DNA from: an uncultured Desulfobacterales bacterium
GTDB taxonomy: Bacteria > Desulfobacterota > Dissulfuribacteria > Dissulfuribacterales > JALVPX01
Direction of reading: 5' to 3'
Assembly: GCA_964459155.1 (NCBI GenBank)
Contig: CAYWKF010000014.1
Location: 7,304-71,303 of the forward strand
DNA length: 64,000 bases
Shown here: one piece after another, positions 48,797 to 54,381 of the stretch
How the letters are laid out: each line of letters begins with the position of its first letter
Numbering within the stretch: position 1 is the first letter of the stretch
Made by a program: the position numbers and the translations under genes
The notes under the pieces: model-generated
Databases searched by the model: none
What the model was told of the DNA's origin: nothing
What the model saw: only the letters and a program-made list of their open reading frames with translations

Positions 48797-51700
48797 ATGC
48801 TAGTAGAATCACAGGCCCTAAAGGTAAATCTGGAAGAGACTGCGGTTGATCAAGTTGATTATGATCCAAGATACAAGGTGCTGCTTGACAGTGTAAAGGA
48901 TTACCAAGGTGTTCAAAACGCAGCCTCGCACCTTCTTTTTGAAATCCATCATCCTTACAAGAATTGGGATGCCATAATAAATGAGCTCCGCGGTTTTGGA
49001 TTAAAAAATCTCAAGACCTATCTAGGTTCTTCCCAGCCTAATCAGGCATTGAGGGCCTTGTTAGATCTTTATTTCTTTATAATCAAGGAAGCGCCAAAAC
49101 CAGAGCAGAGGAAACGTGCAGCAGATGCCCTGCTGGCATTTGTTGAAAAGGTTGCGGCAAGCACCGATCCAGCCCTTCTGCAGAGGCTGTTGCCTCAACT
49201 GGATTATGCATTCCGTAAACTCCTTCAGCAGGATCAATCGATTATTGATGCTGCGGCTAGGAGTTATCATCCTGTTTCCAAATCTGTTTTGATGATTTTG
49301 AAACGTTTGGAAAGGGATCTTCCTGGCTATTTCTTGGAGACAGTGGGAAGGTTGCTGGTGGTGATAAGTGAAACCACCTTGCGCTACTGGCTTGGGCAAG
49401 AAGATCCGTTGAAATGGTTCGAAAAGACAATAAAGTCTCAAGGCCTCGACATAGATAGTGAGCAGAAGACCTTTATCAAAAGGCTCTTTTCGCCAATTTC
49501 CCATGCTGCATTCAAAGTTGCCTTGCAAGGCCTTTGGGCCATTCCTGTTCAGGGTTTGAGTCCAGGCGAGATTGAGAGGCTGGCCAAGAGGCCGGGCCAT
49601 ATGGATATAGTGAGATCTTACCGCAAGATTGCTAGGGAACTGGGTTCAGTGCCTGTGACTTCGGCAGCCAAGCCTGCCCAGAATCTCGATGATGTTCCTT
49701 CAAGTCTTCAGCTCTTTTTTCTTTTCCATATCCTAGAAATAGAAGGTTTGGCCCCCATACACGAGGAGACTTTGCGTCAGATCAATAAGACGTTGGTCTG
49801 CCTGGTAAGGCGAGCAGACTTGGATCGCCTGACAAAGATACTTCCGAAGAGTTTTTCCCTGCTTAAACAGCAAGTAGGCCATTTCCCGAGAACTGCTCTT
49901 CAATGCATTGAAGCGCTTGGACTCGAAGTGTTCCGCAGGGACAACGAGCGCCTTACAGAACTCTTTTTGGAAGAGGTGGTTCAATTTGGCTTCCAAACAC
50001 CCGGCGTTAAAGGGGTTGATGCGGAATGGCAGGTGTTGTGTAATCCCGCCCATTTGCAGAATATCAGGGTGTGGCTAAAGTTAATCGAGTTCAAGCCCAA
50101 ACTTTGCAGCACACTCATTTCTGCCTTGATGCTTAATTTACGGCTGGCAGGCACCTGTATAAGGGACACGGACCTTTTTCAAAAGGACGTCAGCAGGCTT
50201 TTGAATAGCGAAATCGAGCCTGTTTACAACTTGGTGAAACAGTTAACCAAGGTGATCCCAGTCTACTACAATGAGATCGGCGCAGAGGGCAAGCTGCGGG
50301 AAGTCTCTACTGAACTTGATGAGATATCAAACAGACGGGATATTTTGATTCATTTTTTGAGAAAACAGAGCCACGTTGAAAGCAACAACCTAATAGTTGC
50401 TTTCATAGAGTCGATTCTATGTTTCTGGTACAGCAAAGACAAAAGTTGTTTGCGTTCATTTTTGCCACCTGAAATTTATGAACAGATTCCCGTGCATGGC
50501 CAATATGTGGATCATGTCCACAAGCTAGTGCGCCATCTGGCACAGTCTATCGGCCTTGAGCCTTTTTCAAAGGGGGTGCGCAGGCTGCTTGATTTGTCAC
50601 AGGATGAATTGTCAAAACTTATCAGCCAGATCGACGATGTACCCACCTTTGAAAAACAGAGGCTCCTGTTACTCATTGAGATGTACCGCCTTGAAACGCT
50701 CAAGTATGAGCTGAGTCCCAGAGAGATAAGGCGCTATTTACAAGAAGCCGTCGGCTGGGGTTTTGAAGGCGTGGATAAGATTGTAGAGGCACTGGACAGG
50801 GATGATCCTGAAGAATGCCTTGATCTAATTTTGAATGAATTGGAGCAGCTCAAGGAAATTATCTGTAGCAGCGAGCAGTTTGAAATAATGGAAAACATTT
50901 ATCATAAGCGCCATATCGCTGCTGACATTCCATCAATGTATGGCCGTTATCATGAACGCAAGTTCGACGCCTTGAGCCTCACTTTCAGACTGGAAAACCT
51001 GGCAAACCTTTACTTTGAGCGCCTGATAACTTCTCTTGATGTACCCTTTATCACCAGGACAATGCTGGTGCGAATCTTAAAATGCCTGAAGCTGTTCTGG
51101 AGGGCCATTAAATTAAATGGCGTAAGATCAAAAAAGTTTTACACCTACCTGACATTGTTGGAAAAATCATTGCAGGTGAGGCGGTTCAGTTTTACTCAAT
51201 ACCAGGATATCGTGCGGGGCCTGTCTGAAGGTGTCAAGGACATGATTTATGTCCATTACATCAGTCCCCACCAAGACAATATTGCCATTATCGTACGCCA
51301 GCTTGGCCCGGATAATCTTCTGCCTCAGTTTCGCAGGGTTTACATGAGGTCCGCCACCGAGACCGAGGTTATCGAAAAGATTTCTGAAATGCTGTTGAGA
51401 GATCTCATAGCCAATTCATTTGGTCTTCAATACCTGGACAACTTCATTGCAAGGGTCTGGCAGGTACTGGGAGAAGAAAAAGAGGTTTTGGATGAACGCT
51501 CCTTGGATTTGCTGCTGAGTTTCGATCCGGACCAAACGCTTTGTTCCATTTACAAACCGGAGCCGGCTCTAAAAAACTTGATCCACTTGGGCAACAAAGG
51601 GTTCAATCTCGTATTGCTTGTGAATGAAGGTCTTAGGGTGCCTCCGGGAGTTATAGTGACTACTGAGGTCTTCCGCTGGTATTCTATTATTCAGAAATTC

Positions 51701-53115: not shown

Positions 53116-54381
53116 ATGAGCACCAAGGAAAGGGAACCCCGTCCTATGAAGTTGGGTATCAACGGTTTGGGTAGGATCGGAAAATTGAGTGTGTGGCACC
53201 ATGTAGCCAAAAGATCATTTTCAGAATTGGTTGTGAACATAGGCCGTCAGGTGGGGACTGGCCTACACGACATAGCTGCTGCCATTGAACGTGACAGCAC
53301 CTATGGAAGGCTTGGAGTTTATCTGCACGGTCACTCTTGCACGAGGGTTGTCGAGAACCTGAACGAGCAAGAGGGAACCATGACAGTAGATGGCGTTCCG
53401 GTGCGCATCCTGCGTGAAAGCAGGGATCCAAAAGGTATTGACTGGCGTGGCCATGGTGTCGACCTTGTTGTGGATACAACTGGTGTGTTTCGTGATCCAA
53501 CGGCACCTGGTGACGATCCAAAGGGTTCACTGAGGGGGCATCTGGAGGCAGGAGCATCAAAGGTTATCTTGTCAGCGCCATTCAAGATTAAAGAAAAGGG
53601 CCTGGAGATGCCAGAGGATTCGGTTACTACAGTCATGGGCATAAATGAAGATGATTATGTTCCAGAAAAACATGTGCTCATATCGGCTGCTTCATGTACC
53701 ACAACGTGCCTTGCTTTTATGGTAAAACCTCTGTTGGACCATTTTGGACCAAAGCGCATACTCAGTGCTTCCATGGTAACAGTTCACGCAGCCACAGGCA
53801 GCCAGAAGGTGCTTGACAGGCTTCCCAAGGCCGGAGCCACGGATACCAGAAAAAACAGGAGTATATTCAACAATATAATCCTGACGACTACTGGTGCTGC
53901 CAAGGCCTTGAGATTAGTTATTCCCGAGATGAAATCCATTGGTTTCATTGCGGAATCTGTGAGAATACCAACGAACACTGGTTCGTTGATCGTACTGGTC
54001 TTGACTATCCAGGATGAGAGCCTGGAAAATCCCATAAACAGGGAATTGATCAATGGAATTTACAGAAGCGCGGCCGAAGGTCCCATGAGAGATTATCTTG
54101 TTTACACTGAAGAGCAGCATGTTTCTTCAGATATAATTGGTGTTCCATCTGCTGCTGCCATTATTGAGGCCACAGAAACCCATACCAGGACAGCTGCCAT
54201 AGAGGTTGATCCTAATTTAGTATGTCAAGGCCCTGAGGAAGCCATGGAAAAGATTTCATGCGCTCCATTGAAAATTCCTGTGACGCAAGTGGTGGTCTAT
54301 GGCTGGTATGATAATGAGTTGGGCAGCTACACAACCATGCTGGGAGACAGAATCGAAAGTATTGCAGACAGTATGCTTTAG
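53116..54381 (+). CDS. divergent, enlarged glyceraldehyde-3-phosphate dehydrogenase family protein (second paralogue)
   Basis: The 421-aa ORF has a strong RBS (AAGGAGG). Its motifs are INGLGRIGK (Rossmann), SAASCTTTCLA (catalytic Cys retained), VTVHAATGSQ and GWYDNELGSY. It is about 85 aa longer than gap at 47775, because of insertions. Confidence 0.75.
   Translation: MSTKEREPRPMKLGINGLGRIGKLSVWHHVAKRSFSELVVNIGRQVGTGLHDIAAAIERDSTYGRLGVYLHGHSCTRVVENLNEQEGTMTVDGVPVRILRESRDPKGIDWRGHGVDLVVDTTGVFRDPTAPGDDPKGSLRGHLEAGASKVILSAPFKIKEKGLEMPEDSVTTVMGINEDDYVPEKHVLISAASCTTTCLAFMVKPLLDHFGPKRILSASMVTVHAATGSQKVLDRLPKAGATDTRKNRSIFNNIILTTTGAAKALRLVIPEMKSIGFIAESVRIPTNTGSLIVLVLTIQDESLENPINRELINGIYRSAAEGPMRDYLVYTEEQHVSSDIIGVPSAAAIIEATETHTRTAAIEVDPNLVCQGPEEAMEKISCAPLKIPVTQVVVYGWYDNELGSYTTMLGDRIESIADSML

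Follow-up and report, generated by a model that had tools for sequence, protein, structure and literature searches.

The window analysed here is a stretch of 64,000 nucleotides (nt) from an uncultured Desulfobacterales bacterium (contig CAYWKF010000014.1), and coordinates are given as window positions. It carries a block of six genes, all on the forward strand according to the map of open reading frames (ORFs): gap1, a giant ORF of 1,421 amino acids (aa), gap2, pgk, tpiA and secG, with a tRNA-Leu gene closing the conserved block (Table 1). The giant gene encodes a dikinase with a novel N-terminal domain and gap2 encodes a long paralogue of glyceraldehyde-3-phosphate dehydrogenase (GAPDH). The ORF coordinates in an initial annotation, which put the giant ORF 14 nt after gap1 and 53 nt before gap2, are confirmed by the ORF map, and the five spacers of the block are, in order, 14, 53, 9, 9 and 31 nt. 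The giant ORF and gap2 are real genes rather than chance ORFs; a word-indexed search recovers more than 120 full-length relatives of the giant protein, of 1,406-1,473 aa and 50-91% identity. A strong Shine-Dalgarno sequence precedes gap1, which has a GTG start with AGGAGG ahead of it, and another precedes gap2; that before the giant gene is weak. A terminator scan from gap1 through secG found no intergenic terminator. Since terminators are lacking and the giant gene starts 14 nt past the gap1 stop with a weak Shine-Dalgarno sequence, the gap1-secG region fits a single putative operon with translational coupling.

Table 1. Features of the gap1-secG block and of ppsA in the window.
Feature	Position	Strand	Basis or remarks
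ppsA	41256-43745		Pfam PPDK_N, PEP-utilizers and PEP-utilizers_C all present
gap1, canonical type I GAPDH, 335 aa	47775-48782	+	TIGR01534, 430.5 bits (cut-off 367.2); NAD-type Asp32 present
Giant gene, 1,421 aa	48797-53062	+	ORF map, translation
Variable helical N-terminal region, giant aa 1-320	48797-49756	+	Least conserved; confidence (pLDDT) mostly >85
Conserved core of new domain, giant aa 321-925	49757-51571	+	Helical, hairpin at aa 698-719; presumed acceptor site
PPDK-type nucleotide/phosphate-binding (ATP-grasp) domain, giant aa 926-1270	51572-52606	+	PPDK_N, TIGR01828, 1KBL alignment
Linker and swivelling phosphohistidine domain, giant aa 1271-1421	52607-53062	+	Pfam PEP-utilizers
gap2, long GAPDH paralogue, 421 aa	53116-54381	+	Gp_dh_N and Gp_dh_C
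pgk, 400 aa	54391-55593	+	9 nt 3' of gap2; Pfam PGK, 524.7 bits
tpiA, 253 aa	55603-56364	+	Pfam TIM, 326.8 bits
secG, 150 aa	56396-56848	+	Pfam SecG
tRNA-Leu (GAG)	56866-56952	+	ARAGORN

The C-terminal part of the giant protein resembles pyruvate,orthophosphate dikinase (PPDK). Pfam places PPDK_N at aa 975-1219 (93 bits) and the PEP-utilizers mobile domain at aa 1325-1404 (65 bits), and its scan of the protein gives no match to PEP-utilizers_C (PF02896). The initial annotation had proposed a dikinase without the phosphoenolpyruvate (PEP)/pyruvate domain in the company of a genuine ppsA that has it, and Pfam supports both statements. In a phmmer search of the Protein Data Bank (PDB), PPDK of Clostridium symbiosum (1KBL) aligns through its residues 13-513 with aa 924-1415 (E=1e-75), the ATP-grasp part taking up residues 13-340. 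The motifs quoted in the annotation are present in the translation, as is the predicted phosphohistidine, His1356, whose codon (52862-52864) lies inside GGQTSHAA. The ORF stops 65 codons later, at the point where PPDK runs on into the PEP/pyruvate barrel.

Residues of PPDK were paired with those of the giant protein by motif, as HMMER mis-registers the EIEFT/LQGR stretch. Lys22 corresponds to Lys934, Arg92 to Arg1006, the SMPGMM loop to aa 1012-1017, Asp321 and Glu323 to Glu1248 and Glu1250, and Gln335 and Arg337 to Gln1265 and Arg1267. These residues (Lys934, Arg1006, Glu1248, Glu1250, Gln1265, Arg1267), together with GGQTSH1356AA, are invariant in close homologues, and the same ATP-site residues are at least 90% conserved across 26 members of the family that share only 27-52% identity. 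In the swivel motif of these 26, Thr1348 and Gly1351 are invariant and Gly1352, Thr1354, Ser1355, His1356 and Ala1357 at least 90% conserved. The NCBIfam model for PPDK, TIGR01828, covers aa 930-1270 with its positions 17-337 and scores 380.6 bits (cut-off 843.45); the PEP synthase models give 66.6 bits (TIGR01418, cut-off 739.75) and 79.7 bits (NF005057, cut-off 598). Because the ATP site and the TSH motif are conserved and the TIGR01828 score greatly exceeds that of TIGR01418, the phosphohistidine module, which would lead from ATP by way of pyrophosphorylated histidine (His~PP) and then, with inorganic phosphate (Pi), to phosphohistidine (His~P), is predicted to be intact and of the PPDK rather than the PpsA kind.

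Could the protein simply be a PEP synthase or PPDK, or the decaying fragment of one? Database entries for the family say as much, under the names phosphoenolpyruvate synthase, pyruvate,orthophosphate dikinase, 'ppdk2' and PEP/pyruvate-binding domain-containing protein. The domain content contradicts this naming. No PEP/pyruvate domain was found in any family member tested, the scores for the window protein fall far under the family cut-offs, and a complete ppsA is present in the same window. Decay is excluded, as architecture and length are kept over hundreds of clusters at full-length identities down to 27%. An ordinary PEP synthase or PPDK is thus highly improbable.

The initial annotation described the N-terminal 920 or so residues as helix-rich and unassignable, and the profile and structure searches uphold that description, with no Pfam, PDB-sequence or PDB-fold match by which to assign them. 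No Pfam family matches aa 1-920; the corresponding regions of 20 diverse family members give no Pfam match below E=0.005 and no significant HEAT repeat, and a profile of these 20 regions run against all PDB sequences returns a single match at E=1.3. An AlphaFold2 model of aa 1-930, built with 65 homologues, is confident (predicted local distance difference test, pLDDT, 83.7; predicted template modelling score 0.73) and all helix save for one β-hairpin at aa 698-719. A second model, limited to the conserved core at aa 400-930, has a pLDDT of 82.5. Foldseek compared the longer model with the PDB and returned exportin/importin-type solenoids only, at E of about 5e-4 and template modelling (TM) scores of 0.11-0.19; for the core model nothing was found below E=0.16.

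Conservation is uneven along this region. The stretch at aa 121-320 is the most variable, aa 441-560 and 681-760 are about as well conserved as the catalytic dikinase motifs, and for many members of the distant subfamily described below the match sets in near aa 300, accompanied by a second, weaker one. Core motifs are DTDLFQ (457-462), NEIGAEGxLR (492-501), HFLRKQSHVES (519-529) and KRHIAADIPSMYGRYHERKFDA (704-725); across the family, two of them take the forms HFLRKQxHVE and KRHIAxxIPSMYG. In the N-terminal region 23 residues, mostly charged or polar, are invariant in both subfamilies (26 sequences, 27-52% identity), among them His419, Asp457, Gly495, Gly498, Arg501, Asp508, Arg522, Lys523 and His526, and further along Lys636, Tyr637, Lys704, His706, Ser713, Gly716, Arg868 and Asp881. 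The core motifs fall in low-pLDDT loops of both models (aa 456-458, 492-496, 528-530 and 703-716). As invariant charged residues occupy mobile loops of an otherwise confident, rigid fold, we infer that the N-terminal domain behaves like a ligand-binding or catalytic domain. Its conserved core of about 600 aa is a new domain with no detectable relative among solved structures. An ATP-grasp domain, a mobile histidine domain and a third conserved domain therefore lie on one chain, as in the swivelling-His dikinase superfamily taken broadly, and the third, N-terminal domain is probably the one that binds the acceptor.

The solenoid matches raise a different possibility, namely that the giant protein is a protein kinase or regulator. 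The N-terminal region would be a scaffold that grips Gap2, Gap1 or both, and His1356~P would phosphorylate a histidine, serine or threonine of it, thereby setting which way or how actively the glycolytic step runs, much as Enzyme I acts on HPr but driven by ATP. That Foldseek returns only HEAT/ARM-type solenoids (exportin, importin-β) for aa 1-930 fits such a scaffold; however, the matches are weak and vanish for the conserved core, and invariant charged residues grouped in flexible loops and held at 27-52% identity are typical of small-molecule active sites rather than scaffolds. We judge a protein-kinase role unlikely, yet it is the main rival of the scheme preferred below.

The family is large. 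A scan of one genome per species gave at least 576 relatives, of which the best 80 come without exception from Desulfobacterota-type organisms (Thermodesulfobacteria, Thermosulfurimonas, SEEP-SRB2, Desulfobulbus, Desulfurivibrio, Desulfocapsa, Desulfofustis, Candidatus Electrothrix, Desulfarculaceae and Desulfamplus). An exhaustive HMMER search with aa 1-920 gave 542 representatives after clustering at 50%, 389 of them at E <= 1e-10. Full-length representatives measure 1,335-1,540 aa. All six of the distant ones that were scanned have the N-terminal domain fused to PPDK_N and the mobile domain, and the lengths of the remainder are compatible with the same architecture. Members of a second subfamily, about 1,360-1,372 aa long, share 30-36% identity with the protein of the window and come from Clostridia, Lutisporaceae, Bacteroidales, Geobacteraceae and candidate phyla. 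The representative P0274 has an additional N-terminal hemerythrin (HHE cation-binding) domain. Such fusions suggest that some members sense oxygen, iron or redox state, and a sensor domain would also suit a regulatory kinase. Three other representatives (P0277, P0260 and P0310) are probably hemerythrin-fused too, as their matches start near residue 145-154. In one locus (L040, 9974-16064) the giant gene seems interrupted, with a 97-aa N-terminal fragment at 9974-10267 and the main ORF from 11727, possibly by an insertion or through an assembly problem. The initial annotation had left room for an activity already assigned to the family; no characterised member of the giant family was found in databases or in the searchable literature, outside which most subscription journals lie, and no paper in that literature describes Gap2.

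Gap2 had been recognised as GAPDH-like, with the catalytic cysteine and a length greater than that of the canonical Gap. Pfam agrees, with both Gp_dh_N and Gp_dh_C present, and the excess is 86 aa; the TIGR01534 score of 329 bits is below the cut-off of 367.2. In an alignment of 14 sequences that joins 11 of Gap2 type with canonical GAPDHs, the catalytic residues Cys194 (SAASC194TTT) and His224 (VH224AAT) are invariant, as are Asp243, Arg248, Thr259 and Arg283, with Thr227, Arg245 and Gly260 at least 90% conserved. The WYDNE motif is kept. We take Cys194, His224 and Thr227 to be the counterparts of GAPDH Cys149, His176 and Thr179, Arg245 and Arg248 to be the two S-loop arginines, Thr259 and Gly260 to be Thr208 and Gly209, and Arg283 to be Arg231. 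With the thioester residues and both the substrate- and inorganic-phosphate sites retained, Gap2 looks like a phosphorylating dehydrogenase for a substrate resembling glyceraldehyde 3-phosphate (G3P).

The cofactor site is altered. In GAPDH, Asp32 specifies NAD by keeping out the 2'-phosphate of NADP. All 11 Gap2-type sequences have lost it, with N-x-G-R-[EQ]-x-G in place of V-N-D. Since Asp32 is replaced, Gap2 probably uses NADP(H), and the NfnAB-like genes found near one relative (L095, below) fit such use. The S-loop is 3-4 residues longer, and four family-specific insertions total about 85 aa: some 12 aa after DSTYG, 8 aa before LRGH, 9 aa after SAPFK, and 17-30 aa after a new motif, E-[TN]-H-[TA]-R-T. 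The conserved motif of this last insertion could be the phosphate acceptor if the giant protein were a protein kinase. Gap2 also scores against models of erythrose-4-phosphate dehydrogenase.

The genome context of the distant subfamily ties the two genes together. A long GAPDH of 401-442 aa lies directly 3' of the giant gene in nine of the 11 lineages inspected, with just 5-14 nt between them in three loci (L085, L091 and L094). In Geobacteraceae (L085/86) the spacer is 5 nt. In Lutisporaceae (L089/90) the pair is followed by a PGDH-like 2-hydroxyacid dehydrogenase. In L091 an aldehyde dehydrogenase (ALDH), the giant gene and a long GAPDH follow one another with spacers of 2 and 12 nt; in L093 a glycerate kinase and a GntP permease stand ahead of the pair; and in L094 a degenerate 332-aa GAPDH, the giant gene and a 416-aa GAPDH form the same triad as in the window. 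Three more loci (L092, L096 and L097) have the giant gene and then the long GAPDH. In L095 the pair precedes two genes at 8844-11067, one with NAD_binding_1 and DHODB_Fe-S_bind and the next with Fer4_20 and Pyr_redox_2, which from this Pfam content we take to be NfnAB-like; NfnAB is an NADH-dependent ferredoxin:NADP oxidoreductase that generates NADPH. The long GAPDHs that were aligned, from seven of the nine lineages, are 46-53% identical to Gap2 of the window and share its altered dinucleotide motif and its insertions, which makes them its orthologues.

A GAPDH-family gene beside the giant gene in unrelated phyla cannot be coincidence, and Gap2 is a true, cross-phylum partner of the giant gene. 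The module consists of a gap or ALDH gene, the giant gene and Gap2, often as a triad, and in the lineage of the window it precedes pgk-tpiA-secG. The very short or overlapping spacers to the gap genes suggest stoichiometric co-production, which a kinase acting on Gap proteins would also favour. The upstream members in two of these loci are themselves divergent. That of L094 (3990-4988) is a degenerate GAPDH-like gene in which TRLL replaces TGAA (TIGR01534, 197.6 bits), and that of L091 (3403-4998) encodes a divergent ALDH of 531 aa.

In the subfamily to which the window protein belongs the association takes another form. Eighty loci were examined, and each denominator counts those whose flanking DNA extends far enough. 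The commonest neighbour is a canonical gap, which precedes the giant gene on the same strand in 48 of 70; in 41 of these 48 it is no more than 400 nt away, and several such pairs are 3 nt apart or overlap. Downstream, a Gap2-type gene follows in 14 of 65 loci and pgk in 15 of 65. The two-gene module put forward in the initial annotation is essentially correct, though in the window's own subfamily the two genes adjoin at a minority of loci. SEEP-SRB2-like loci read gap1-giant-pgk-tpiA-secG, with gap2 absent from the arrangement, and many Desulfobulbia loci read aroK-aroC-glgA-gap1-giant. The gene called glgA here is a 541-aa member of the starch/glycogen-synthase family (L038, 7254-8879, and the other 29 loci of cluster C2).

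Thermophilic relatives have the order rpoN-…-ptsN-rapZ-EIIA(Man)-GNAT-gap1-giant-gap2-pgk. This position behind genes of the nitrogen-related phosphotransferase system (PTS-Ntr), rpoN-ptsN-rapZ-EIIA(Man), would suit a regulatory kinase, yet these genes are absent from the window and from the Desulfobulbia, Geobacteraceae and Clostridia loci. A more specific version, an ATP-driven Enzyme I for the upstream PTS-Ntr genes, was rejected, as the neighbourhood is specific to one clade and a 75-aa ORF in it is not HPr-like. A small RimI-like GNAT gene adjoins the gap genes in several loci (L009, 6243-6692; L011, 8245-8718; L081, 9306-9737), either ahead of gap1-giant, as in the thermophilic relatives, or between gap2 and pgk, as in Desulfurivibrionaceae. 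It was also set aside as a functional partner, because GNATs compared between the two settings share just 32% identity and the window has no such gene.

Relatives of Gap2 at 70-72% identity occur in Desulfurivibrionaceae, Desulfobulbus and Thiovibrio. In Desulfurivibrionaceae gap2 stands apart from the giant gene and itself heads gap2-GNAT-pgk-tpiA-secG, from which it follows that in the phylum of the window the long GAPDH can serve as the operon's own gap, gap1-giant being a separate pair. The window is then a case in which the gap1-giant pair happens to sit directly upstream of gap2-pgk-tpiA-secG. The initial annotation saw instead an insertion into a conserved gap-pgk block; its coordinates hold, but the Desulfurivibrionaceae arrangement changes what was joined to what, and a simple insertion between gap and pgk is contradicted by most Desulfobulbia-type loci, where gap1-giant lies elsewhere, often after glgA.

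What, then, might the pair do? The scheme that we prefer, and to which we attach a real though less than even chance, is that the giant protein makes an acyl phosphate from a carboxylate acceptor for reversible use by Gap2. The ATP-grasp domain would pyrophosphorylate His1356 from ATP and pass the outer phosphate to Pi, giving AMP, pyrophosphate (PPi) and enzyme-His~P; formation of His~PP from ATP and its conversion to His~P and PPi are established for PPDK. The swivelling domain would then carry His~P to an acceptor site in the helical N-terminal domain, which presumably replaces the PEP/pyruvate barrel, the site being formed by the invariant Arg/Lys/His/Asp/Glu loops at aa 457-531 and 699-731. 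Most likely the acceptor would be a phosphorylated three-carbon acid, taking the phosphate on its carboxylate; 3-phosphoglycerate (3-PG) is the prime candidate, in which case the product handed to Gap2 would be 1,3-bisphosphoglycerate (1,3-BPG). Gap2 would reduce it to G3P, probably with NADPH. Giant protein and Gap2 together would be a counterpart of phosphoglycerate kinase (PGK) and GAPDH driven by conversion of ATP to AMP and suited to gluconeogenesis; the reverse, with ATP made from AMP and PPi during glycolysis, may equally occur.

There are precedents for the parts of such a scheme. Succinyl-CoA synthetase and ATP-citrate lyase both pass phosphate from His~P to a carboxylate, and kinases that form acyl phosphates are paired with phosphorylating reductases in PGK/GAPDH, Ask/Asd, ArgB/ArgC and ProB/ProA. 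Neighbouring genes cluster at the node of 3-PG, glycerate and triose phosphate: gap1, pgk and tpiA in the window, the glycerate kinase and GntP permease of L093 and the PGDH-like dehydrogenase of L089. We offer, as a tentative and rather doubtful assignment, a 3-phosphoglycerate,phosphate dikinase that would catalyse 3-PG + ATP + Pi <-> 1,3-BPG + AMP + PPi and work with an NADP(H)-leaning GAPDH. The standard free energies of hydrolysis are about -49 kJ/mol for 1,3-BPG and about -46 kJ/mol for ATP to AMP and PPi; by arithmetic from these textbook values the reaction is just a few kJ/mol uphill and near equilibrium. As it is reversible and close to equilibrium, its direction cannot be read from sequence.

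Several observations weigh against an acyl-phosphate role. The sole fold likeness of the N-terminal region is to HEAT-like solenoids (TM <0.2), a fold commoner in protein-binding scaffolds than in enzymes, and the hemerythrin sensor domain of some relatives is a trait common in signalling proteins. The giant gene is separate from Gap2 in most Desulfobulbia-type loci (L021-L078), and two Bacteroidota lineages have no Gap2 nearby, one having a short divergent gap upstream and the other no gap gene. The window already has pgk directly after gap2, and a further way to 1,3-BPG would call for a physiological justification. Finally, the scheme does not account for the upstream gap1 or ALDH, a frequent third member of the module.

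The dikinase chemistry might be the same and the acceptor another. Glycerate or glyceraldehyde could be phosphorylated to give 3-PG or G3P for Gap2; 4-phosphoerythronate and erythrose 4-phosphate, some other pair of acid and aldehyde, or a glucan, as for the glucan-water dikinase of plants, are further candidates. Dikinases with exchanged acceptor domains phosphorylate hydroxyl groups of rifampicin, glucans and phenol, which lends weight to this view, as do the scores of Gap2 on erythrose-4-phosphate dehydrogenase models and several neighbours: glgA ahead of gap1-giant in many Desulfobulbia loci, glycerate kinase and the GntP permease ahead of the pair in L093, and ALDH ahead of the giant gene in L091. 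The phosphate-site residues of Gap2, however, point to a G3P-like substrate and a phosphorylating mechanism, adjacency to glgA is confined to one class, and the giant protein has no carbohydrate-binding module or β-rich domain. A glucan dikinase was discarded on the last two grounds, the class in question being Desulfobulbia. For a different acceptor as a whole the chance appears small but not negligible.

Another possibility is that the enzyme supplies or recycles PPi and AMP for the APS reductase and ATP sulfurylase of sulfate-reducing bacteria, sulfur disproportionators and cable bacteria. PGK and a 3-PG dikinase running as a cycle would convert ADP and Pi to AMP and PPi, and in reverse would remake ATP. 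The nucleotide domain belongs to the PPDK type, which uses Pi and PPi; pgk adjoins in the window; the same textbook arithmetic makes the energetics feasible; and the window's subfamily is concentrated in Thermodesulfobacteria, Dissulfuribacter-like organisms, SEEP-SRB2, Desulfocapsa, Desulfurivibrio and Electrothrix. These sulfur taxa are one related group, though, and plain inheritance may explain the distribution; the family also occurs in Clostridia, Bacteroidales and Geobacteraceae, which lack such sulfur metabolism, and no sulfur genes are linked to it in any locus examined. The idea depends, moreover, on the 3-PG acceptor that is itself conjectural, and we consider it improbable.

Some features elsewhere in the window may be recorded. 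A 385-aa ORF on the reverse strand (44405-45562) combines YbeY (aa 21-136), an endoribonuclease domain, with PdxJ (aa 147-378), that of pyridoxine-5'-phosphate synthase, and resembles a fusion of ybeY and pdxJ. It overlaps a phoH-like gene by one base (45562), with corA beyond. There are two pairs of tRNA genes, tRNA-Ser(TGA)/tRNA-Ser(GCT) at 38387-38581 with 15 nt between them, and tRNA-Leu(GAG)/tRNA-Pro(GGG) at 56866-57151, 3' of secG. Genes of the S-adenosylmethionine cycle and polyamine metabolism flank the region, metK and ahcY upstream and speD-like and speE-like genes downstream.

What is new here is a dikinase with a novel N-terminal domain and a dedicated GAPDH paralogue, widespread, strongly conserved and mis-annotated. 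The pairing of giant gene and long GAPDH in anaerobes of several phyla suggests an undescribed step at the 3-phosphoglycerate/triose-phosphate stage. Lower glycolysis and gluconeogenesis belong to the best-studied pathways, and to our knowledge no variation in their PGK/GAPDH step is reckoned with in bacteria. A conserved family tied to GAPDH genes across phyla points to an alternative at this step, in which the acyl phosphate is made or used differently, or else to some novel form of control, and either would alter the bookkeeping of ATP and PPi in metabolic models of energy-limited anaerobes. If a 3-PG dikinase were the correct reading, it would provide a second, differently energised PGK/GAPDH route in many anaerobes, with cable bacteria, sulfur disproportionators, the syntrophic partners of methane oxidisers, Geobacteraceae and Clostridia among them. 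Such a route would drive gluconeogenesis harder, as PpsA and PPDK do relative to pyruvate kinase, or would conserve the energy of PPi in glycolysis. The misnaming has consequences of its own, as a protein called PEP synthase or PPDK can create false pyruvate-to-PEP routes in metabolic reconstructions, with those of cable bacteria, SEEP-SRB2, Thermodesulfobacteria, Geobacteraceae and Clostridia at risk. With the conserved core, the swivelling-His dikinases would gain a new kind of acceptor module.

How does the pair compare with known systems? By its domains and motifs the giant protein is assigned to the swivelling-His dikinase group and is neither PPDK nor PEP synthase nor of the rifampicin-phosphotransferase/PigC type. 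With PPDK (EC 2.7.9.1, 1KBL) it has in common the order of ATP-grasp and swivelling histidine domains, about 490 alignable residues and the GG-x-TSHAA motif; in contrast to PPDK, the chain stops at the linker to the PEP/pyruvate TIM barrel, and a novel domain of about 920 aa precedes the ATP-grasp. Rifampicin phosphotransferase and the prodigiosin ligases PigC/RedH follow the same principle, a dikinase module with a non-pyruvate acceptor domain and a C-terminal swivel, but their acceptor domain lies between ATP-grasp and swivel and that of the giant protein is N-terminal. The rifampicin phosphotransferase and PigC/RedH models score only 34.4, 30.2 and 28.7 bits on the giant protein, against cut-offs of 999, 1350 and 1300, and structures of rifampicin phosphotransferase are absent from the best 50 Foldseek matches of the N-terminal models. 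The NF004531/PRK05878 proteins, of about 534 aa, consist of ATP-grasp and swivel only, likewise without a PEP domain, and supply the second-best NCBIfam match at 302 bits. That score is below the 456-bit cut-off, and unlike the giant protein they are short and lack a large N-terminal domain; we know of no function for them.

PGK with GAPDH, Ask/Asd, ArgB/ArgC and ProB/ProA share the logic proposed for the pair, in which a labile acyl phosphate passes to a neighbouring cysteine-dependent reductase. Their kinases transfer phosphate directly from ATP and give ADP, whereas a His~P relay that takes ATP to AMP is predicted for the giant protein, and the likeness, itself inferred, is one of function and not of homology. 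Gap2 for its part is best placed, from its alignment, as a divergent subfamily of type I GAPDH (TIGR01534), a type that includes GapB of Bacillus, an NADP-using gluconeogenic enzyme. It shares with type I GAPDH both domains, the catalytic cysteine and histidine and both phosphate sites, and differs in its four insertions, the missing Asp32, SAASCTTT in place of SNASCTTN, the new E-[TN]-H-[TA]-R-T motif and a score under the family cut-off.

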